Part shown: positions 1 through 9,696 of the stretch, piece after piece
How positions within the stretch are numbered: the stretch's first letter is position 1
Layout of the letters: each line of letters starts with the position of its first letter
Source of the DNA: Escherichia phage ime
Strand: one strand, 5' to 3'
Sequence record: MN850576.1
DNA: 64,000 nt
Program-made: the position numbers and the translations under genes
The notes under the pieces: model-generated
Database searches by the model: none
What the model saw: only the letters and a program-made list of their open reading frames with translations
What the model was told of the DNA's origin: nothing

Positions 1-1373
1 ATCAACTCGTCCACTGGAATAGACCCGAAATGTTTGAACACTTTGATTTTTCCAGCTTTTGCCCATGATTGGTGAATCTCTGCGTGTTCTTGATCAGTTA
101 AAAACTGGCTAGGATCTTCAACAAACTCTTTAACATCAAACCCTAACTGGTTTGCATACAAGGAGTTAATTGCTTCCTCTGGGTCCTCCTCAAGATGGAT
201 CATACATAGACGATCATCCTCTTCATAGTCATCAGCCTTCGGGCATGTTGGGTCCATTAGGTATCTTGCAATACAATGTTCCAGTTTTTTAGCTACGGTT
301 GTTTTACCGCCACCTGATGGGCCTGTAAGCATTACAAGTGTCCCCTTGTGCAAGCCTTTTAACATTTTTTGCAGTTTTGGGAACTCTGCACTGATATCTA
401 CCCCGTTGGAAGTCTTTTTCCGCAAAGACTCGATAGAGAAGTCTTCTAAGTCCGACACAGCATCAGGCACGTATTTAACAGGATGCCGGAACATGTTGAC
501 AATATCTTCCAGCTTTTTAGCCTTCAGCATGTCACGGATATCTTTTACCCCGTCAGGGTCATTTACTTCACCAGGGTATTCTACGTGGTAAACGTTATCA
601 GCCATCAAAAATGCTGCGATATTGTGCGTGGCCTCAACACCTTTAATGACGTGTTTTTGCTTCTCTACCTCGTTGGCTGCATCGTTATCCATTGCCAGCA
701 CAACTGTTCCATAGCTACGGATAAACTTCTCATTGTTTGCAAAAGTATCTACTGCGTTTGCACATCCACAGTTAATTCCAACAAAAGGTAGGCAGGGTTT
801 TCCTGCCAGATCACCACCGTTGATAACTGCATCGATCCCGTCCTGGACCTCTTTAGCCCACTGTTTCACCTTTGCCGGGGCTTTAGCATTGGTGAGAATC
901 CCTTTTACTTGTATCTGATATGCAGCCTGCCATGCTGCAATAACATCGCCTTCCCCCTCACAAACGTTAATCTGCTTACGGTTGTTAGAAGATGCACACA
1001 GCTTTTGCCCAAACATTTGGGAGTTAGCCTTTACGATCCCAACCGTCGTAAAGTGCCCACGTTGCTCTTTGGGGATCGTCCAGTCACGCTTTTTGAAACC
1101 GGACAGATTCCCGTAGCGGTCGTAATATGGGAAATATGTTGCAGTAACTGTCACACCGTCTTCTTGGGACAATGCTGATCGCACACCAAAATATTGTGCA
1201 GCCATCAGACCGATATTTTGTTGTGGGACAGGGACAATTTTAGTATTTTCTAAAACAGTCTCTACAGTTTCAACTTCTTTTTCATCACGATAGTCTCGTT
1301 TCACACTTCCCCCACTTTTATACTTAGTTGCTTTCGGGTTTGGCTCACCGAAACGGTTGTATGCAGATGCCAT
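1..1373 (-). CDS. DNA primase-helicase (TOPRIM primase + RecA-like helicase), partial; 3' end runs off the window
   Basis: Minus-strand frame open from ATG at 1373-1371 to position 1 (absent from ORF track because the stop is outside the window). My translation contains TOPRIM-like acidic motifs (CEGEGD, AMDNDAAN) and Walker A GPSGGGKT (about 300-330). Overlaps and supersedes plus-strand ORFs 346-1178. Confidence 0.75.
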   Translation of the reverse strand, partial: MASAYNRFGEPNPKATKYKSGGSVKRDYRDEKEVETVETVLENTKIVPVPQQNIGLMAAQYFGVRSALSQEDGVTVTATYFPYYDRYGNLSGFKKRDWTIPKEQRGHFTTVGIVKANSQMFGQKLCASSNNRKQINVCEGEGDVIAAWQAAYQIQVKGILTNAKAPAKVKQWAKEVQDGIDAVINGGDLAGKPCLPFVGINCGCANAVDTFANNEKFIRSYGTVVLAMDNDAANEVEKQKHVIKGVEATHNIAAFLMADNVYHVEYPGEVNDPDGVKDIRDMLKAKKLEDIVNMFRHPVKYVPDAVSDLEDFSIESLRKKTSNGVDISAEFPKLQKMLKGLHKGTLVMLTGPSGGGKTTVAKKLEHCIARYLMDPTCPKADDYEEDDRLCMIHLEEDPEEAINSLYANQLGFDVKEFVEDPSQFLTDQEHAEIHQSWAKAGKIKVFKHFGSIPVDEL

Positions 1374-1377
1374 AAAT

Positions 1378-2172
1378 TTACTTCCCATTAATTCTGCTCC
1401 TTACTACAGGCTCGTTTGCTAAGAATACGGCTTTTGCCCAGCCACGTGGTGTGAGGCTTCGGATCATCTTCGTTCTTGCACTCTTCCCACCCAGCTTGGC
1501 GTGTTGCATGGAATACCCGCTAACCGCGTCAACTATTTGCGGGACAGGTTTTGTGGCCGGGATTATAAATCCATTACCTATCCAGCCGCAAGTTATTTTT
1601 GGATAGGCATCACGTGGAGCTATAAATTCAGGAAACCAGGGGTTTACATCATCCTCCGGTAAATACCCGCCATAGTCAGAAGGATGAAAACGGTAATCAG
1701 GTTTGCGCCACAGTGTGGACATAACACCAACAGGATTCTCTACATGCCACGGGCAATCGTAAATCTCTCCCAGCTCTTCCGCAACCCGAGCATCCTTTAC
1801 AGCATTAATTTGGATCAAAGGATCCTTAGCCAGCTTTTTCTTAAAATGTGCAGCACCTGATACCGCTAAATGCGTGCACGGAGGAAATGCAAGAATAAAG
1901 TCTGGAGCTGGATACATGCAAAAAGTTTCCTGAGGGAACCATGGGTCAATCCAATAATCCACATAGTGAATGTTAGGATGATCGGTTATCACCTCTGCAT
2001 AACTGCCGTGGTCAGCACCTTCTGCATTAAAGCACAGGCACAGGTACCCAGCTTTTGCCCAGTCAATAACTGCACCACCAGACCCGTCAAATAGACTCCA
2101 CACAACACCTTTGTGGTAGTGTTCTTTGTAGATGAATTTCAATTTGCTGTCTCCTAATGCAAAAAGCCCCAC
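1378..2172 (-). CDS. DNA cytosine-C5 methyltransferase-like protein (short, no obvious target-recognition domain)
   Basis: Motif I LFDGSGG (FxGxGG), motif IV FPPC, motif VI HVENPVG (ENV). Called start 2172 is GTG inside a terminator hairpin; a TTG about 2148 after AGGAG is a more likely start. Confidence 0.55.
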   Translation of the reverse strand: MGLFALGDSKLKFIYKEHYHKGVVWSLFDGSGGAVIDWAKAGYLCLCFNAEGADHGSYAEVITDHPNIHYVDYWIDPWFPQETFCMYPAPDFILAFPPCTHLAVSGAAHFKKKLAKDPLIQINAVKDARVAEELGEIYDCPWHVENPVGVMSTLWRKPDYRFHPSDYGGYLPEDDVNPWFPEFIAPRDAYPKITCGWIGNGFIIPATKPVPQIVDAVSGYSMQHAKLGGKSARTKMIRSLTPRGWAKAVFLANEPVVRSRINGK

Positions 2173-2187
2173 CCTTTCGGGCAGGGC
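2161..2187 (-). terminator. Rho-independent terminator/attenuator (9-bp stem, GAAA loop, U5)
   Basis: Minus-strand RNA GCCCUGCCC-GAAA-GGGUGGGGC followed by UUUUU; lies between the stop of 2194..2676 and the coding start of the C5-MTase-like gene. Confidence 0.6.
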
Positions 2188-2193
2188 CTAGTG

Positions 2194-2676
2194 TTAAACC
2201 CGGATACCTATTGTATACTCGGTGGATACCAATGTCAAATCTAAATTTAAAATTTCTTGCATCTCATAATATGCGTCCAGGGTTAGATACATTTCCCCAT
2301 CCTTTTCTACATACTTGTCCAAGTGCTTGAGGCATTTCGGATAACTATCAAGTGCAGCTTTCAGGCACTCAAACTCTGTGCTGTTGATGAATCCTTCCAT
2401 CTTGGCTACCCGTTCTGGGGTAATGATAGCACTGTAGTGAGATTTAGCTTCCTGAATGCAATGGGTCCAAGCATCAACCTTCTCTTCGAAAAGTCCAAAG
2501 AACTTCTTTTTGGTGAGCTTCAGATTCTTTAAGTGCTTAAGCACTCGGTTGCCGATTACAGCCACATCACGAAACTTAAGGATCACCTTGTCGATATCCT
2601 CGCGGCCTATTTTCACAAAGCAGGCTTCGCACATTTCAGGGGCTGCGTAACCTACTTTCCACATAAAATCTGACAT
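2194..2676 (-). CDS. Hypothetical protein with Cys motif WKxGYAAPxxCExC
   Basis: 160-aa ORF; N-terminal motif MWKVGYAAPEMCEAC shared with the protein of 21230..21430. Confidence 0.55.
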   Translation of the reverse strand: MSDFMWKVGYAAPEMCEACFVKIGREDIDKVILKFRDVAVIGNRVLKHLKNLKLTKKKFFGLFEEKVDAWTHCIQEAKSHYSAIITPERVAKMEGFINSTEFECLKAALDSYPKCLKHLDKYVEKDGEMYLTLDAYYEMQEILNLDLTLVSTEYTIGIRV

Positions 2677-2688
2677 ACCGCCTTCTCC

Positions 2689-3084
2689 TTATTCCTTAAA
2701 AGCTATGATATCATAGGAACTTGCAGATGATTCTGGTGAAGAATGACTCCAGTCCAGGTCATCAGAATAGTCAGCGTACTGTGCACCACTACGTAGTTTA
2801 TATTTTACCCACTTACCTGGTGCAGGGTTTTCACCACCTTCCCATACTTCCCAGCCTTCTGGCAGGCCGTCCTGGGGATAGTCATCCACCTCACTAATAA
2901 TCTTAGGGTTTGGCACCAAGATCCCTGCAGGCTCTTCCTTCCGGATAAGTGTCCACACAACGTAGGTGTCTGAGCAGGCGCATGATAGCAAAGTATATCC
3001 ACTATTCAGAACTTCTGCAAGCTCTTTTTCAGCATCTTCCAATTTGGTTAAGTGGTATTGGATAATCTTCACACCTGTAATCAT
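2689..3084 (-). CDS. Hypothetical protein
   Basis: 131-aa ORF tightly packed between neighbours on the same strand; no recognised motif. Confidence 0.5.
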   Translation of the reverse strand: MITGVKIIQYHLTKLEDAEKELAEVLNSGYTLLSCACSDTYVVWTLIRKEEPAGILVPNPKIISEVDDYPQDGLPEGWEVWEGGENPAPGKWVKYKLRSGAQYADYSDDLDWSHSSPESSASSYDIIAFKE

Positions 3085-3389
3085 CAGAAACCTCCCACTT
3101 CTTCAGCAAATGCAGCTGCTGTCGTCGCTGCATCCAGATAGGACTCTAGTTCACGGGCTGCACGTTTGTAAATTGAGTGGCGCATATCGTTTGGCAGTTG
3201 GTGGAAGTCCACCTCTTCACCGTTGTGGTAAACATGCACATCGGTGATTTGTCTAAATCCGTAACAGTCAACATCAGAATCCCGGCACTCCGGATCTGGC
3301 AACTGAACAACTGCCTGAGCTTCCACAGTAAACATATCGTCAAGTTCGAAATCGATTTCAAAAGTGTATGGTTTATAACGTTTCATCAT
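3084..3389 (-). CDS. Hypothetical protein
   Basis: 101-aa ORF, start overlaps upstream stop (ATGA); no recognised motif. Confidence 0.5.
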   Translation of the reverse strand: MMKRYKPYTFEIDFELDDMFTVEAQAVVQLPDPECRDSDVDCYGFRQITDVHVYHNGEEVDFHQLPNDMRHSIYKRAARELESYLDAATTAAAFAEEVGGF

Positions 3390-3402
3390 TTGATTGTACT
3401 CT

Positions 3403-4728
3403 TTATTGATCAGAATTATCTTTCGTAATTAAGGTCTGGGTAAGTTTGTAATAGCGGAAGCCACCGCCACCTTGCCAGCTTGCAGACTTAGAAATACCAC
3501 CTTGATCTTCACCATCAATCACTTTTTGCAAGCGAGGGATAATATGGGTATGACAATGATCACCCAGTTCGATCAAGATCCAACGTCTTTTCATCTTGTG
3601 GGCTACAGCAGCAGTAGTTCCCGAACCGCCGAATGAATCCAATACCAAATCACCTTCTCGCGTACACATTTCGAGAATCCGCTTCAAAAGCGCTTCTGGT
3701 TTTTTTCCATTTTTGAAACTAACGCCGCCTTCATTTGCTATTCCATTCCAACTAATGTCTGTCCAAACATCAGTTATTAGTTCCGCAGGTTGCATCTCAC
3801 CGTCAATTTCCAAAAGCCTGTTGGAGTAAAAGACCATTTGCCTACCATTTGCGATATAAAATCCTTCAACATCCTCATTCGGATGTGCATAAACCTTATC
3901 CCTATCTTTCTTTGACTTCTCGATAGTTTCTTTTCTCTTTATTTTAGCGCCACCACCAATTGCAACAGATTGAAATACACGTTCTGCATTATCAATTGCG
4001 AATTGTGCTAATTCATCATCGAATGTGTCAGGCAGTTTTTTCTTAGCTTCTTTTGCATCTTTATAGCCATTGGCCTTTGCAAACGCATCGGCAATACCGC
4101 ACCACGTCCAATTTTTATAATGGTCATCCGGGTTTAATAGGTATTTGTTATATCCTGTATCATACCCTTTAGGTATATAGATTTTGTTAAGCGGTTTCTG
4201 GGTGCGATCTTTTGCATATACAAGCAAAAAGTTTGCTGTGGAGAAAACTGTGGCTCCTGTTGCCTTAAATCCCGAAGGGGAATTTGTGGTCATCGATATG
4301 GTATTTAACTGATTTGCACGACCAAAAATCTCGTCCATCAAAACTTTTAAATACGCCATTTCGCAATCATCTAAGTGAACGAATATTACCCCATCATCAC
4401 TTAGAAGATTACGAATTATTTCTAACCTATCCCTCATTAAGCCCAGCCAAATGGAATGCTCAAGGCTATCATCGTAGTGCTCAAAAGCCCTTCCAGTATT
4501 GAATGGTGGGTCTATGTAAACACATTTCACTTTGCCTGCATACTCTTGCTCTAGCGCCTTCAATGCTAATAAGTTATCTCCAAAAATCAGTTTATTATCA
4601 AAAATATCGTTTTCGGTCACTTTCTGGCTGTGGTAAGACTTGCTAGAATCTTCTAACAAAATGTGCGGCTCTAACTTTTTGCGCTCGTTTTTACCTATCC
4701 AGGTTAGTTCTAATTTGGTTTTACTCAT
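3403..4728 (-). CDS. DNA amino-methyltransferase, beta class (N6-adenine or N4-cytosine)
   Basis: Motif IV YIDPPFNTG near N-terminus and motif I DSFGGSGTT near C-terminus (IV-TRD-I order = beta class). Confidence 0.8.
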   Translation of the reverse strand: MSKTKLELTWIGKNERKKLEPHILLEDSSKSYHSQKVTENDIFDNKLIFGDNLLALKALEQEYAGKVKCVYIDPPFNTGRAFEHYDDSLEHSIWLGLMRDRLEIIRNLLSDDGVIFVHLDDCEMAYLKVLMDEIFGRANQLNTISMTTNSPSGFKATGATVFSTANFLLVYAKDRTQKPLNKIYIPKGYDTGYNKYLLNPDDHYKNWTWCGIADAFAKANGYKDAKEAKKKLPDTFDDELAQFAIDNAERVFQSVAIGGGAKIKRKETIEKSKKDRDKVYAHPNEDVEGFYIANGRQMVFYSNRLLEIDGEMQPAELITDVWTDISWNGIANEGGVSFKNGKKPEALLKRILEMCTREGDLVLDSFGGSGTTAAVAHKMKRRWILIELGDHCHTHIIPRLQKVIDGEDQGGISKSASWQGGGGFRYYKLTQTLITKDNSDQ

Positions 4729-4789
4729 CGTTTGGTGCTCTCCTTAGTTTTTGTGGGGAGGAGTGCCTCCCCTTTATACTCACATCTTA

Positions 4790-5131
4790 CTACTCAAGGT
4801 CTTCAGAGTCAAGCTCAAAAAGAATCAAACTGTGCATACCTGCAGAGAGATTAACACACCCTGCAACAATAAGGGTTTGATAGTAAGGTTCAGCACCCTC
4901 AATGTCTTCGTTAAAATCCACAACAAGGTAGTCACCTTTGTTAAAGGTGTATTTGTCCGATGTAAACGCAAAACCTGCCCAGTCCCCTACTGCAGGATCT
5001 TTATCAGTCACCTTTGTTAGCAGTAGATCTTTTTCACGAGATCTTTTAGTAAAATCGTGAATCACAACATCCTTCTCTTCAGGAGTCGGATTGCCACACA
5101 CGTAGTTAACGATATTTCTCCACAAACTCAT
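4790..5131 (-). CDS. Hypothetical protein
   Basis: 113-aa ORF; overlaps helicase stop by 4 nt. Confidence 0.5.
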   Translation of the reverse strand: MSLWRNIVNYVCGNPTPEEKDVVIHDFTKRSREKDLLLTKVTDKDPAVGDWAGFAFTSDKYTFNKGDYLVVDFNEDIEGAEPYYQTLIVAGCVNLSAGMHSLILFELDSEDLE

Positions 5132-6498
5132 ACGTCCCCCTCTTCTGCTCTGGTTTCAAAATCTTTCCTGACAATTTTGTCTAAGTCAGGGAATGTTGTA
5201 TTGTAAAACTCTACTACTCGCGGGTCAACAATAATGTCAACTTCTCTTAGGGGACGCAACAAGTTTATTCCTTGTATTGTCTTAACTCTACTCAAAGCGA
5301 CATACGTCATCCCAGGAGAGAAAGCTCCGTTCTTTCCAAGGTCTAGGTTGTAACAATCTAGCGTAAGTCCTTGACTTTTATGAGATGTTACGGCGTACCC
5401 AGATTTCAGAGGAAGTTGCTTGTATGACCCAATCACTACCCTCTCTATAAACTTCTCCATCTTCCTTTCTGCAATGTTGTATCTCTGAGAGGGCTTATAC
5501 TCGTTATTCTCCCACAACCTCTGCTCTATGTCAACCTGTGTTCCATCTTCAAGCTCTACCACCACCGCCTTGTTCTTAAATTTAACAATTGTGGCACGTG
5601 TTCCGTTAACATAATAAGGTACTTTGTGCGTCGGGTCAACATCGTTGGCGGTTATCATAACTTTCATGCCAATTTTCAACTTCATCTCCTGCTCAACTGG
5701 CAGGGTGGAGGGAAACTTACCCTTCATTTCACCAGTGTATACCTTCTCTGGGGCGTTGATGGCATCATAGAACCTTCTGTTTACTTCCTCTGCTTGTTTG
5801 TTGGTGGCGCAAATTGTGAGAGCATCTGTTGGTACACCACCTTTGTAACAGCGAGCATTAAGTTCTGCTACAACCTCTTTTATGCGACGACCCTCACGAA
5901 CACAGTTGAGCATTGTGGCAAATCGAATAGACTCCTGTCGGAACTGATCTATTAGGGCTATGTTGTGGAGGTCAAGCTCTTTCCAAGATTCGGTGTAGCA
6001 ACACAGGTCCGTATGGTAGAAGTTGAAGTAGGCTTCCTTCTCCATAGAAGAGACAACAGGAGGTGCCTGGTAAAAATCGCCAAACAATATGACCTGTATG
6101 CCTCCGAAAGGTTTGTCATTTTTTCGAAGGAAGCGGAGTTTCCTATCCATCTCTATAAACTTATCAGCACGGATCATAGAGATTTCATCGATAATTAGGA
6201 TGGTAAATGCCTTGCTTTTCAAAGGCTTTGCTGTTTTTGCCCTTATTGCGGTCCAGTCCGACTCCATGCTCACACCTGCTGCAAGATCGAATGTTCGGTG
6301 TGCTGTTGCTCCATTAACGTTTAAAGCGGCTACCCCTGTCGGGGCAACCGTTATGCAAGAGTCTCCATACATTGACTGGATCATGTTGATGAGATACGTC
6401 TTCCCACAACCTGCAGGTCCTGAAACGAAGACATTCTCACCACTCATGATTGCAATGAGGGCAGCATCTGTGCCTACGTCATACTGCCCTTTTTCCAT
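5128..6498 (-). CDS. SF1 DNA helicase, Dda/RecD/Pif1-like
   Basis: Walker A VSGPAGCGKTY, Walker B IIDEISM; 456 aa. Confidence 0.8.
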   Translation of the reverse strand: MEKGQYDVGTDAALIAIMSGENVFVSGPAGCGKTYLINMIQSMYGDSCITVAPTGVAALNVNGATAHRTFDLAAGVSMESDWTAIRAKTAKPLKSKAFTILIIDEISMIRADKFIEMDRKLRFLRKNDKPFGGIQVILFGDFYQAPPVVSSMEKEAYFNFYHTDLCCYTESWKELDLHNIALIDQFRQESIRFATMLNCVREGRRIKEVVAELNARCYKGGVPTDALTICATNKQAEEVNRRFYDAINAPEKVYTGEMKGKFPSTLPVEQEMKLKIGMKVMITANDVDPTHKVPYYVNGTRATIVKFKNKAVVVELEDGTQVDIEQRLWENNEYKPSQRYNIAERKMEKFIERVVIGSYKQLPLKSGYAVTSHKSQGLTLDCYNLDLGKNGAFSPGMTYVALSRVKTIQGINLLRPLREVDIIVDPRVVEFYNTTFPDLDKIVRKDFETRAEEGDV

Positions 6499-7713: not shown

Positions 7714-9696
7714 TTATTTGGTGTTATTCTTTGCGTCGATCAGTTCACGGTATTCAATCATAGCAGGAGTGTCCCAATATTTCAAGCCCACATGCTTCAA
7801 AAGTGGATATTTCTTTTCCAATCTTGCAATATAGGCCTTCCCGCACTTGACTCGGTTGGCGATTAAGATTTTGGCACGATGATTTAGCTCACTGTGCTTC
7901 CACGCGGTGTTACCTTCCCACTTGTGGAAATGTGGCCGATAATTTCCAAAATCTTGCATGGGGATAATTTTCCCTAATTGTCTATACAGGCTGTCATATG
8001 AAGTTTCATTTGCTGCGCGAGTCAGTAAGAATTTCCAGGCGTCCTCTTTCAACAAATGTTCCACATTTTTCTCTGTAACATACTGGCAATCAGGATCAGT
8101 CCAAAGCAGACGAGATTCTGATACCAGGTACAGATCTTCCCCTTCAGGAATCTGGAGTGCCGCACGCACACGGTCATAATTTTGCTGGTAGATGTTACTT
8201 AGCTGTCCCAGCCAACAACTTCCACGTTGGATATCACCCTCATAAGGAATGCAGTGCTTAATCTTCTTGAACTCTGCCTTAGTAATACGTTCACGACGGA
8301 AGTAACCATCCTTCTCAAGCTTTTTAACCCAATAACCTGGCTCGTAATGAGTTTTTGTTTCACCTTTCTTCGCAGGTCGGCGAGGGAGCTCTGATAACAA
8401 TTTGACAGTATCTGCAAAGAACGGATGGTGTGCCGCCTCTTTAAACTCTTTCACCAGATCCGTGTTCCGGCAATAGAAAACGTTGCGTCCGGTGATTTCG
8501 CTTAAGTAGTTACACTTATTTCGGTTATATTTACCATCTCCGTCGTTAAATACAAGGTATACACCTCGTAAGAACTCCGACTTTCCGTAACGAGCATAGC
8601 CTATGCGGTCTTTATTTAAGCCGCCAGCGAAAATTTCACAATCGCCTAAGTCGCCAAGCCCTGTTTCTTCCCAACGGTTCCACATAAAGTTTTTGCCGAA
8701 GATGTGTCCGAACACTCCACTATTCTTCATCATTTCACGTGCTTCTGCGGAGGTTTTTGCCGTCTCCAGTTCTGCAATAACTTCTGCCCCGCGAAGACGT
8801 ATACCTTCTTTGACAAAGGCCTCCAGGCGATCCTGGAATCCACCGTCGTCATGGCCCTCTATGGTCCATTCACGCCCAGGGTTAATATTGCAATCCCCAA
8901 TAGGAATTTCCACGCAGATTGCAGGGTAATCGGTCAATGTCTCCAGGAACTTGGAGCGGTAAGGTTGGTGACCCATCACAACACGGCTCTCATCAGAACT
9001 GGTATAACCTTTCAGGATGGTCATTTTCCAGCCATCCTTCTCGTAATGATACTGTGCCTCAACCTTGTCACCTTCTAACATCTTACTGGTCATAGGATCG
9101 GTGACGATGAACGGAAACTTCGCATAGCGTAAGCACGATGCAATAGCAGTGCGATATTTCAGGACATGCTCTTTCTTAACATGGAACTGAACTTTTACCC
9201 CGTTGTGCTCTTCAGTCTTCCGCTCACGGATCTTGGTAACGTTTGGGATACCCTGATCCAAGAACAATAGATATGTGCTTTCAACACCATTGTGCACACT
9301 GATAACATCGAAAGTGTCCACCATACTGAACGGAGCCTTTGAACCAACACCTTTATTACCTACCAGAGCGTTGCTGTTGCGCTTGGTTGACTCCCCGAGA
9401 TTCATGAAAGTGTTGCGGACCATCTCTTCTGACATGCCCAATCCAACGTCCTGCACAAAGAAGTATGGTTCAAGGTCTGTAGGAGAGTGAATGATGATCG
9501 GTACATCACCCCGTCCAGACTCAACATGGGAGTCCACAGCATTGAAGATTGGTTCACGGCAGCTTGCCAGCACCTTATCTTCGTAAATCCCTTTAATGAT
9601 TAGCCCAAAAGTCTCTTTGTTCAGAGAAATTGAGCCCCTGGTGACCTCCATATTTCCGGTCAGCACTGCTTTAGTTTCATTACTGTTTACAATCAT
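7714..9696 (-). CDS. rIIA: rIIA-like protein with N-terminal GHKL/HSP90-like ATPase domain
   Basis: N-box-like FNAVDSH and G-loop GNKGVGSKAPFS (compare T4 rIIA GGFGLGSKSPFS, recalled from memory); 660 aa. Confidence 0.65.
   Translation of the reverse strand: MIVNSNETKAVLTGNMEVTRGSISLNKETFGLIIKGIYEDKVLASCREPIFNAVDSHVESGRGDVPIIIHSPTDLEPYFFVQDVGLGMSEEMVRNTFMNLGESTKRNSNALVGNKGVGSKAPFSMVDTFDVISVHNGVESTYLLFLDQGIPNVTKIRERKTEEHNGVKVQFHVKKEHVLKYRTAIASCLRYAKFPFIVTDPMTSKMLEGDKVEAQYHYEKDGWKMTILKGYTSSDESRVVMGHQPYRSKFLETLTDYPAICVEIPIGDCNINPGREWTIEGHDDGGFQDRLEAFVKEGIRLRGAEVIAELETAKTSAEAREMMKNSGVFGHIFGKNFMWNRWEETGLGDLGDCEIFAGGLNKDRIGYARYGKSEFLRGVYLVFNDGDGKYNRNKCNYLSEITGRNVFYCRNTDLVKEFKEAAHHPFFADTVKLLSELPRRPAKKGETKTHYEPGYWVKKLEKDGYFRRERITKAEFKKIKHCIPYEGDIQRGSCWLGQLSNIYQQNYDRVRAALQIPEGEDLYLVSESRLLWTDPDCQYVTEKNVEHLLKEDAWKFLLTRAANETSYDSLYRQLGKIIPMQDFGNYRPHFHKWEGNTAWKHSELNHRAKILIANRVKCGKAYIARLEKKYPLLKHVGLKYWDTPAMIEYRELIDAKNNTK

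Follow-up and report, generated by a model that had tools for sequence, protein, structure and literature searches.

Two putative orphan DNA methyltransferases in the replication module of an rV5-like Escherichia coli phage, one of them a type III Mod without its Res-docking domain

Sequence record MN850576.1, from Escherichia phage ime, was analysed here over 64,000 nucleotides (nt; hereafter the window, numbered from its first base), in which a group of five open reading frames (ORFs) occupies positions 1378 to 4728. The original prediction, made from the sequence alone, had described this group as two DNA methyltransferases bracketing three small genes; all five ORFs were found where it had placed them, every one on the minus strand, and the two outer genes do appear to encode DNA methyltransferases. 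Over bases 1000-5200 the window shares 99.2% identity with Escherichia phage rV5_ev146 and 98.8% with phage rV5, and a total of 117 phage records match this region, which identifies the phage, on sequence grounds, as an rV5-like Vequintavirus of E. coli. The region corresponds to gp226-gp230 of rV5 and to bas48_0070-0074 of CarlMeissner, a phage of the BASEL collection. The order of genes on the minus strand is rIIA, rIIB, a Dda-like helicase gene, orf113, the gene for a methyltransferase of 441 amino acids (aa), orf101, orf131, orf160, the short methyltransferase gene, a primase/helicase gene, and the DNA polymerase gene, and both methyltransferase genes thus sit within the replication module of this rV5-like phage. 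Both have been labelled as methyltransferases in GenBank since the deposit of rV5, with some records using the terms 'Dcm-like' or 'type III ... methylation subunit'. From the evidence set out below we think it likely that the two encode independent orphan DNA methyltransferases rather than the ends of a five-gene cassette, and that the larger enzyme would pre-methylate progeny DNA against a restriction-modification system of E. coli from which its gene appears to derive.

The short methyltransferase gene (1378..2142, minus strand; rV5 gp226, bas48_0074) most likely starts at the TTG codon at position 2142, and would then encode a Dcm-like C5-cytosine DNA methyltransferase of 254 aa. The length of 264 aa first given for this protein relied on a GTG codon at 2172 and is probably too long, as this codon is part of the 3' arm of a hairpin that resembles a terminator (2189-2164); TTG 2142 has the sequence AGGAG just ahead of it and agrees with both the rV5 RefSeq and the BASEL annotation. 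Of the three C5 motifs attributed to the protein, FxGxGG (as FDGSGG) and PC (as PPC) were confirmed, and the third reads ENP rather than ENV. Motif I, FDGSGG, occupies residues 18-23, with G20 and S21 at least 90% conserved in an alignment of homologues; motif IV, PPC, is found at residue 87, and its Cys89 is invariant across 28 homologues; motif VI, E135-N136-P137, is invariant in the homologue alignment, its third residue being Pro and not Val. These are followed by a motif VIII-like PRDAYPK at residue 176 and a motif IX-like SLTPRG at residue 229. The earlier impression that the protein has no obvious target-recognition domain was correct insofar as the region is very short, but a region is present: approximately 43 residues separate PRDAYPK(I/K)T from IRSLTPRG, which is not a sizeable recognition domain and is similar to the short region of DNMT3-type enzymes. 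This short stretch between motifs VIII and IX accounts both for that impression and for a resemblance to DNMT3.

Usable evidence on the short protein came from PHROGs, structure prediction, and the literature. The protein matches phrog_757, 'DNA methyltransferase', with an E-value of 5e-87; comparison with the sequences in the PDB returned a marginal motif-I match to M.HaeIII only, and a profile of the short family compared with the same sequences gave a best E-value of just 0.15. The C5 methyltransferase model PF00145 was matched weakly by 18 of 28 sampled homologues, the best with E 1.3e-6. The family of short proteins (220-260 aa) is large, comprising 3,546 protein clusters and 1,503 phage records, and its carriers include Drexlerviridae, Klebsiella phages, RB49-like phages, Seunavirus, and Phapecoctavirus, among others. 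An AlphaFold (AF2) model of the short protein generated from the family alignment had a predicted local distance difference test score (pLDDT) of 89.4 and a predicted template modelling score (pTM) of 0.89, and the best Foldseek matches to this model were the catalytic domains of DNMT3A and DNMT3B (E 1e-6). The predicted structure would therefore fall within the C5-methyltransferase fold and not outside it. The likeness to the DNMT3A/DNMT3B catalytic domain (6u8p, 4u7t) extends to 12-17% sequence identity at a template modelling score (TM-score) of approximately 0.5, and the regulatory domains of the DNMT3 proteins are absent from the phage enzyme. These results are in line with the suggestion that the short protein is a solitary C5-type enzyme, one with a minimal recognition region.

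An experimental anchor for this family is provided by phage K42, whose 711-bp dcm gene is studied in a preprint on retron Ec86 (10.1101/2023.08.16.553469). As described in that preprint, K42 is 95.4% identical genome-wide to the BASEL phage KarlJaspers, K42 mutants that escape retron Ec86 have dcm disrupted, and expression of K42 dcm switches on the retron, the gene being active alone in E. coli (10.1101/2023.08.16.553469). The same source describes the detection by liquid chromatography-mass spectrometry of 5-methylcytosine on the multicopy single-stranded DNA (msDNA) of the retron with K42 Dcm, reports that a variant combining C82A, E128A, K175A, and K176A is inactive, and assigns CCWGG as the target of the enzyme, an assignment that is based on a CCTGG-to-AATGG change in the msDNA and is short of a full specificity determination (10.1101/2023.08.16.553469). 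In KarlJaspers (Bas06) we found that the product of the 711-bp gene bas06_0055 has C82, E128, K175, and K176 at precisely the positions mutated in K42. The window protein is 54% identical to KarlJaspers Dcm over 235 residues (E 2e-86), and C82, E128, K175, and K176 of the latter align to C89, E135, K182, and I183, respectively. Given this level of identity to a K42-type Dcm and the alignment of the mutated residues, the short protein can be assigned to a family of short phage C5 methyltransferases that has been validated by experiment. The two enzymes belong to a similar length class (236 versus 254 aa), have their catalytic Cys and Glu residues aligned, and share a DNMT3-like predicted fold with a minimal recognition region. 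They differ at K176 of K42, which is Ile183 in the rV5 enzyme, and in context, as the rV5 enzyme is encoded in the replication operon of a 137-kb myovirus and the K42/KarlJaspers Dcm in a 51-kb siphovirus. They also differ in the recognition loop, for which two sub-classes were found, NPGWxKxGG in K42 and GYSxQHxKLGG with a four-residue insertion in the rV5 enzyme.

By analogy, the rV5 enzyme would use S-adenosylmethionine (SAM), Cys89, and Glu135 to produce 5-methylcytosine in phage DNA, and probably in host DNA as well. It had also been suggested that such a short C5-like protein might be a nucleotide- or DNA-modifying enzyme rather than a classical methyltransferase. That it adds a group other than methyl, such as the carboxymethyl group that CmoX takes from carboxy-S-adenosylmethionine (Cx-SAM), or acts on nucleotides or RNA, seems to us extremely improbable. 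Chemistry like that of Cx-SAM and CmoX was rejected because the K42 homologue makes 5-methylcytosine and no cmoA-like gene is found among the annotated neighbours.

The larger gene (3403..4728, minus strand; rV5 gp230) encodes a 441-aa protein in which DPPF at residue 73 precedes FGGSGTT at residue 366, the order of a beta-class amino-methyltransferase, as had been proposed. This protein matches PF01555 (E 8.5e-43) and the PADLOC model MTase_III (PDLC03636; E 3.5e-202), the latter over positions 2-443 of 575 only, and its nearest solved relatives, identified through matches to PDB sequences, are the type III Mod subunits 6k0w (3e-29) and EcoP15I Mod (1.2e-23). Over residues 1-438 it is 95% identical to a chromosomal Mod of E. 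coli that is 567 aa long (P0123 / WP_024226319), and the majority of its bacterial homologues, which come from many phyla, have lengths of 550-630 aa. At the nucleotide level, blastn aligned window positions 4741-3394 (a homology block at 3394..4741, minus strand) with the E. coli mod locus at 93.6% identity over 1,363 nt, from 13 nt upstream of the ATG to approximately nt 1349 of the 1704-nt mod gene. Shortly before the homology ends, a small indel shifts the reading frame, and because of this the two proteins end differently, with the phage protein stopping at ...TKDNSDQ* and the E. coli protein going on as ...VKDKFGLEVINKEY. The phage Mod ends a few residues past the last strand of the methyltransferase domain (GGGGFRYYKL, residues 420-429), and approximately 129 C-terminal residues are absent. 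Searches with tblastn across the 64-kb window, the small ORFs included, detected no leftover of the C-terminal part of Mod and no credible match to the E. coli Res subunit (best E 0.25); the genes on either side of the phage mod are orf113 and orf101. The 441-aa gene would therefore be part of a type III mod gene captured from E. coli, encoding a putative orphan N6-adenine methyltransferase.

To place the truncation relative to the domains of a type III Mod, we used EcoP15I, whose Mod subunit consists of an N-terminal domain, a methyltransferase domain (to residue 516), a recognition domain, and a C-terminal domain (residues 539-644); its two Mod subunits dimerise via the N-terminal and methyltransferase domains, and the C-terminal domain of ModA extensively contacts Res (PMC4490356). 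A HMMER alignment matched EcoP15I residues 505-514 (GFKVYQLMP) with E. coli Mod residues 424-432 (GFRYYKLAP), and the phage truncation at residues 438-441 thus corresponds to the end of the methyltransferase domain. The complete E. coli Mod was also modelled with AlphaFold; the best whole-length structural matches to this model are type III Mods, and in it the last core strand spans residues 425-430, followed by a separate alpha/beta unit at approximately 445-537. As judged from these alignments, the phage Mod still has its dimerisation region at the N-terminus along with the catalytic and target-recognition domains, and is without the Res-docking domain; the retained parts should suffice for dimerisation, SAM binding, site recognition, and methylation. 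In its beta-class motif order and its N-terminal, catalytic, and central recognition domains the phage protein is the same as the type III Mods EcoP15I (4zcf), 6k0w, and Mbo45V (7dsu), and it differs from them in having neither the Res-docking domain nor an accompanying res gene, in being borne by a phage, and in being polymorphic for presence and absence. The phage and E. coli Mods presumably have a recognition sequence in common, given their 95% identity over 438 aa. Its most likely function would be the methylation of one strand of the asymmetric site of the donor system on replicating phage DNA, and progeny virions would then reach the next host carrying this type III system already protected. 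As the C-terminal domain is absent, the phage Mod would be unable to recruit Res or to assemble a restriction complex.

The same domain arrangement could also be read as that of a dominant-negative protein, in which a tail-less Mod mainly forms heterodimers with the host Mod and reduces the number of active Mod2Res complexes, with methylation being secondary. The domains through which EcoP15I dimerises are kept in the phage protein, the one through which it docks Res is lost, and the phage Mod is nearly identical to the host subunit, all of which would favour interference of this type. Nevertheless, purifying selection acts on the catalytic and SAM-binding motifs and on the recognition domain, all of them dispensable for a pure poison, the phage protein would be made only once the incoming DNA had already been exposed to restriction, and the host Mod in a heterodimer could still fill the Res-docking position. 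We therefore regard an enzyme that acts mainly in this way as very unlikely, and favour pre-methylation of progeny DNA.

The candidate donor is a complete restriction-modification locus. In E. coli, the gene for the 567-aa Mod is directly followed by a gene encoding a helicase-nuclease of 910-912 aa (Res), and PADLOC identified the former as a type III methyltransferase (positions 2-572 of 575, E 6e-284) and the latter as REase_III (E 8.8e-191). This system was found in 29 of 5,426 complete E. coli genomes (approximately 0.5%), with cattle isolates among them; SMN013SH2 and 2014C-3011 are examples of strains with the 567-aa Mod. The island in which it resides (loci L008-L013, for example L008:3919-14464) encodes a helix-turn-helix (HTH) protein similar to MAD1, a DrmD-like SNF2 helicase, AbiD, AIPR/AbiU, and the type III Mod and Res proteins, is flanked by AlpA and IS66, and lies at tRNA-Sec in one cattle strain. 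The SNF2 helicase is 964 aa long and, while DrmD-like, scores under the NCBIfam cut-off for DISARM. The HTH protein matched MAD1 of the MADS system (NF047737, 82 bits at a cut-off of 80; PADLOC mad1, E 2.9e-10), and among the six island proteins scanned it was alone in matching MADS, with no matches to MAD6-8, which are mandatory in that system. MADS, whose methylase in Pseudomonas recognises a bipartite site, accordingly seems improbable as the donor system, as the HTH protein alone fits the MADS model and the Mod/Res pair scores as an ordinary type III system; ARMADA II was rejected because its gene set is different.

The phage mod gene is under purifying selection. The ratio of nonsynonymous to synonymous substitution rates (dN/dS) is 0.12 relative to the E. 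coli gene, 0.11-0.15 among three Vequintavirus copies, between which there are few substitutions, and approximately 0.07 on the phage branch in a three-taxon decomposition. An intact Mod of 441 aa is encoded in 86 phage records at ≥90% identity, a 447-aa version occupies the same position in a Vequintavirus-like metagenomic contig, and overall the gene is present in approximately 86 of approximately 115 Vequintavirus records and missing from about one quarter. We considered whether the truncated Mod might be a decaying, non-functional remnant that is carried as a neutral passenger, as could be supposed from its missing C-terminus, from the records that do without it, and from the sensitivity of Vequintavirinae to restriction in laboratory tests. 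The low dN/dS values, which include those between phage copies, argue against this, as do the intact reading frame with its DPPF and FGGSGTT motifs and the retention of 441-447 aa in at least 86 records and in metagenomic contigs. Moreover, the truncation falls exactly at a domain boundary, and another phage has an apparently independent truncation there. We consequently give the idea of a decaying remnant little credence.

Comparison of closely related phages indicates that Mod is a discrete presence/absence block. EduardKellenberger, which belongs to the same species as CarlMeissner (Vequintavirus murica), shows a clean absence of 1.33 kb: its orf113 leads straight on to orf101, with orf131, orf160, and the Dcm-like gene next in order, and synteny between the window and this Mod-less genome (L015) breaks at window positions 4725 and 3391. 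A short motif, AGCAC.AAA.GATGA, is common to both Mod junctions and to the region upstream of E. coli mod, which is compatible with illegitimate recombination. Between orf113 and the start of Mod lies a perfect GC-rich palindromic hairpin, GGGGAGGAGTGCCTCCCC (4755-4772); as this hairpin is kept in the Mod-less phage, where it is found right upstream of orf101, it marks the upstream edge of the Mod block. In Salmonella phage PVP-SE1 (Seunavirus), the same module is found with the short methyltransferase gene and a weak homologue of orf101, and no Mod.

A second truncated Mod was identified in a phage-like context unrelated to rV5. This copy, of 444 aa, is located at positions 8001-9335 of a contig from Logan accession SRR16894903 (L014), where it is surrounded by genes for PhoH, ClpP, and a Dam-type methyltransferase and by an nrdD gene split by HNH endonuclease genes. 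The part that is homologous to full-length Mods ends at ...GGGGFHYFNLVPS, the same domain boundary as in the rV5-type protein, and is followed by an unrelated tail. The number of synonymous substitutions per site (dS) separating it from either the rV5-type or the E. coli gene is 0.64, versus 0.20 between those two, and for this reason it looks like an independent capture and truncation. Apparently independent cuts at one boundary in Vequintavirus and in a metagenomic phage unrelated to it may be a sign of convergent selection. A broader proposal, that phages repeatedly capture type III Mods and shed the Res-docking domain to obtain a counter-defence enzyme, which might in addition sabotage Mod2Res by heterodimerising, is one that we put forward tentatively and regard as unlikely.

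The three small ORFs between the methyltransferase genes are orf160 (2194..2676, minus strand; rV5 gp227, 160 aa), orf131 (2689..3084, minus strand; rV5 gp228, 131 aa), and orf101 (3084..3389, minus strand; rV5 gp229, 101 aa). None of them had a match in Pfam or NCBIfam at E ≤ 0.1 or to a known anti-restriction or anti-defence family. The PHROG families matched by orf160, a near-ORFan, and orf131 (phrog_12900 and phrog_11995, respectively) are of unknown function, as are the three proteins themselves. The acidic isoelectric points (pI) of orf131 (4.45) and orf101 (4.46) are typical of small early phage proteins; they are compatible with an anti-restriction role, and are neither specific to it nor diagnostic. 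Relatives of orf101 make up two clusters among 5.8 billion proteins and those of orf160 five representatives among 1.84 billion, while orf131 was searched in profile libraries only. By tblastn, orf101 is confined to approximately 115 Vequintavirus records, compared with approximately 1,500 for the family of the short methyltransferase; its weak homologue in PVP-SE1, gp007, is 29% identical (E 6e-6) and lies at the corresponding position. The orf101 protein also matches weakly two PHROGs of small proteins that are labelled 'DNA methyltransferase', phrog_1573 (E 2.4e-6) and phrog_2060 (E 0.0069), and is itself far too small to be one.

The original prediction had raised the small proteins as candidate partners of the methyltransferases or as anti-restriction factors, and in its strongest form this would make the five genes a single cassette for DNA modification or anti-restriction, with the small proteins contributing specificity or activity. 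The five genes do lie on one strand and are tightly spaced, the recognition region of the short enzyme is very small, orf101 has the two PHROG matches just described, and PVP-SE1 likewise has an orf101 homologue near its C5 gene. There is also precedent in M.AquI and M.EcoHK31I, C5 methyltransferases that are split into two polypeptides, and the rV5 enzyme resembles them in being a short catalytic chain that might need a second small protein; it differs in carrying motif IX on the same chain and in belonging to a family whose members function, or at any rate occur, without these neighbours. The distribution of the genes largely refutes the cassette. Mod is cleanly present or absent, and EduardKellenberger, a phage without it, has the small ORFs in unaltered form; the C5 family is found in approximately 1,500 phages and orf101 in approximately 115; and tblastn across 50 kb of KarlJaspers found no homologue of any small ORF, the K42 enzyme being active alone in E. 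coli. In addition, orf160 and the C5 gene have a terminator-like hairpin between them. The idea that orf101 travels with Mod was rejected as well, as the L014 phage has a truncated Mod and no orf101 homologue, and phages without Mod retain orf101. We thus find a five-gene cassette scarcely credible, and from this comparison of sequences the small ORFs appear to be lineage-specific Vequintavirinae genes of unknown function rather than methyltransferase partners. They would already have been at this spot, and look bracketed only because the Mod block sits between orf113 and orf101.

Several annotations in and around this module call for caution. In PVP-SE1 (L003), annotation problems affect positions 4127-4456, 4730-4984, and 5752-6360; two proteins of approximately 85-110 aa in this phage are labelled 'DNA ligase', and orf131 and orf113 of the window weakly match PHROGs with the same label. 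PVP-SE1 gp010, which carries the note 'similar to RB49p189', was examined as a second paralogue of the short methyltransferase and rejected, as it shows no similarity. The upstream neighbour of the Mod block, orf113 (4790..5131, minus strand; rV5 gp231), matches phrog_11869 and encodes a further acidic protein of unknown function.

The signals around the C5 gene suggest how it is expressed. Between the orf160 stop codon and the ribosome-binding site of the C5 gene lies the intrinsic-terminator-like hairpin (2164..2189, minus strand), which has an 11-bp GC-rich stem, a GAAA loop, and a U-run and looks like a terminator of the upstream genes. It is preceded by a sigma-70-like promoter, TTGACA-17-TACAAT (2210..2238, minus strand; 11 of 12 matches), that is annotated as P231 in the rV5 RefSeq record, and three other Vequintavirus genomes (L001, L002, and L015) share the hairpin and promoter sequence with 100% conservation. 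The resulting order of promoter (2238-2210), terminator-like hairpin, and then the ribosome-binding site and TTG codon of the C5 gene is unusual, and the hairpin may be a leader or attenuator, or may simply mark the end of the upstream genes. At its other end, the C5 gene shares its final 11 nt with the start of the primase/helicase gene, whose ATG is at 1388 and of which the window contains the 5' part (1..1388, minus strand), the remainder extending beyond its left end; because of this overlap the C5 gene is probably expressed with the replication genes.

This arrangement bears on the possibility that one or both methyltransferases serve the physiology of the phage, in replication, packaging, avoidance of mismatch repair, or the timing of gene expression, and not the evasion of restriction. 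Methylation by Dam at the pac site of phage P1 is an example of such a role. The overlap of the C5 gene with the primase/helicase gene, ahead of DNA polymerase, is a position that is kept in both Vequintavirus and Seunavirus, and in other phages C5 genes of this family often adjoin helicase genes. The part of the BASEL study that concerns Drexlerviridae likewise describes no link between methyltransferase genes and resistance to restriction (PMC8594841). Weighing in the other direction, the C5 gene is absent from some related phages, as noted in the CB7 paper, and is found in non-replication contexts in Phapecoctavirus, and the restriction-modification origin of Mod together with its indel status favours an accessory role in counter-defence. 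A purely physiological role is, in our estimation, unlikely, and two independent orphan methyltransferases, with Mod pre-methylating progeny DNA, remain the reading that we prefer.

A number of points weigh against this reading and temper it. The short protein has no match in Pfam or NCBIfam, PF00145 included, at E ≤ 0.1, and as its recognition loop belongs to a sub-class other than that of the characterised K42 enzyme, the CCWGG specificity is not transferable to it. The catalytic activity of a Mod without its C-terminal domain is something that we infer from the retained domains. The donor system is rare in E. coli, and for that reason the selective benefit of carrying its Mod may be small. 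Our literature searches returned no methylation data or methylome paper for Vequintavirus, and the rV5 genome paper makes no mention of methylation or restriction. Finally, as described in the available part of the BASEL study, Vequintavirinae are exceptionally susceptible to the restriction-modification systems tested, among which the type III system considered here was not included (PMC8594841). This susceptibility suggests that neither enzyme gives broad protection, and that any protection would be narrow.

Solitary methyltransferases that protect the phage encoding them are a familiar theme, exemplified by the Dam enzymes of T4 and T1, Dmt of P1, and the multispecific C5 enzymes of the Bacillus phages SPbeta and phi3T. 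The rV5 Mod is like these in being a solitary methyltransferase of a lytic phage, without a cognate nuclease, that presumably pre-methylates progeny DNA, and differs from them in that its donor is identifiable through nucleotide identity and in that it is a type III Mod that has undergone domain loss rather than a complete type II-like enzyme. In the literature searched we found no paper on a truncated phage Mod, and no report of the donor locus, of the truncation that removes the Res-docking domain, of the indel between BASEL siblings, or of the second independent truncation. These details fit the theme of phage orphan methyltransferases, and neither an unfamiliar modification chemistry nor a novel multi-gene system is indicated. 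For a group of phages used in therapy and typing, the annotation gains are that the short C5-like protein can be placed in the validated phage Dcm family, a known trigger of retron Ec86, and that the 'adenine methyltransferase' appears to be a host type III Mod that has lost the domain for docking Res. CarlMeissner (Bas48), which has Mod, and EduardKellenberger (Bas59), which does not, are members of one species that differ by this gene, and so provide a natural experiment on protection from the donor system, a matter relevant to predicting the host range of O157 typing and therapy phages.

The frequencies of short sites were also examined across the window. CCWGG is not avoided, with 99 sites observed versus 86 expected, a count that is uninformative as to the target specificity of the C5 enzyme, and neither is GATC. 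CpG is depleted, with 1,999 occurrences versus the 3,152 expected from base composition, and GCGC, CCGG, and GGCC are low too, while the EcoP15I site CAGCAG is over-represented (41 versus 11). Lastly, GenBank records MG065635-MG065690, which are deposited as 'Campylobacter phage' with Campylobacter jejuni as the host, are approximately 97% identical to rV5-like E. coli phages across the region, and this host label looks doubtful.

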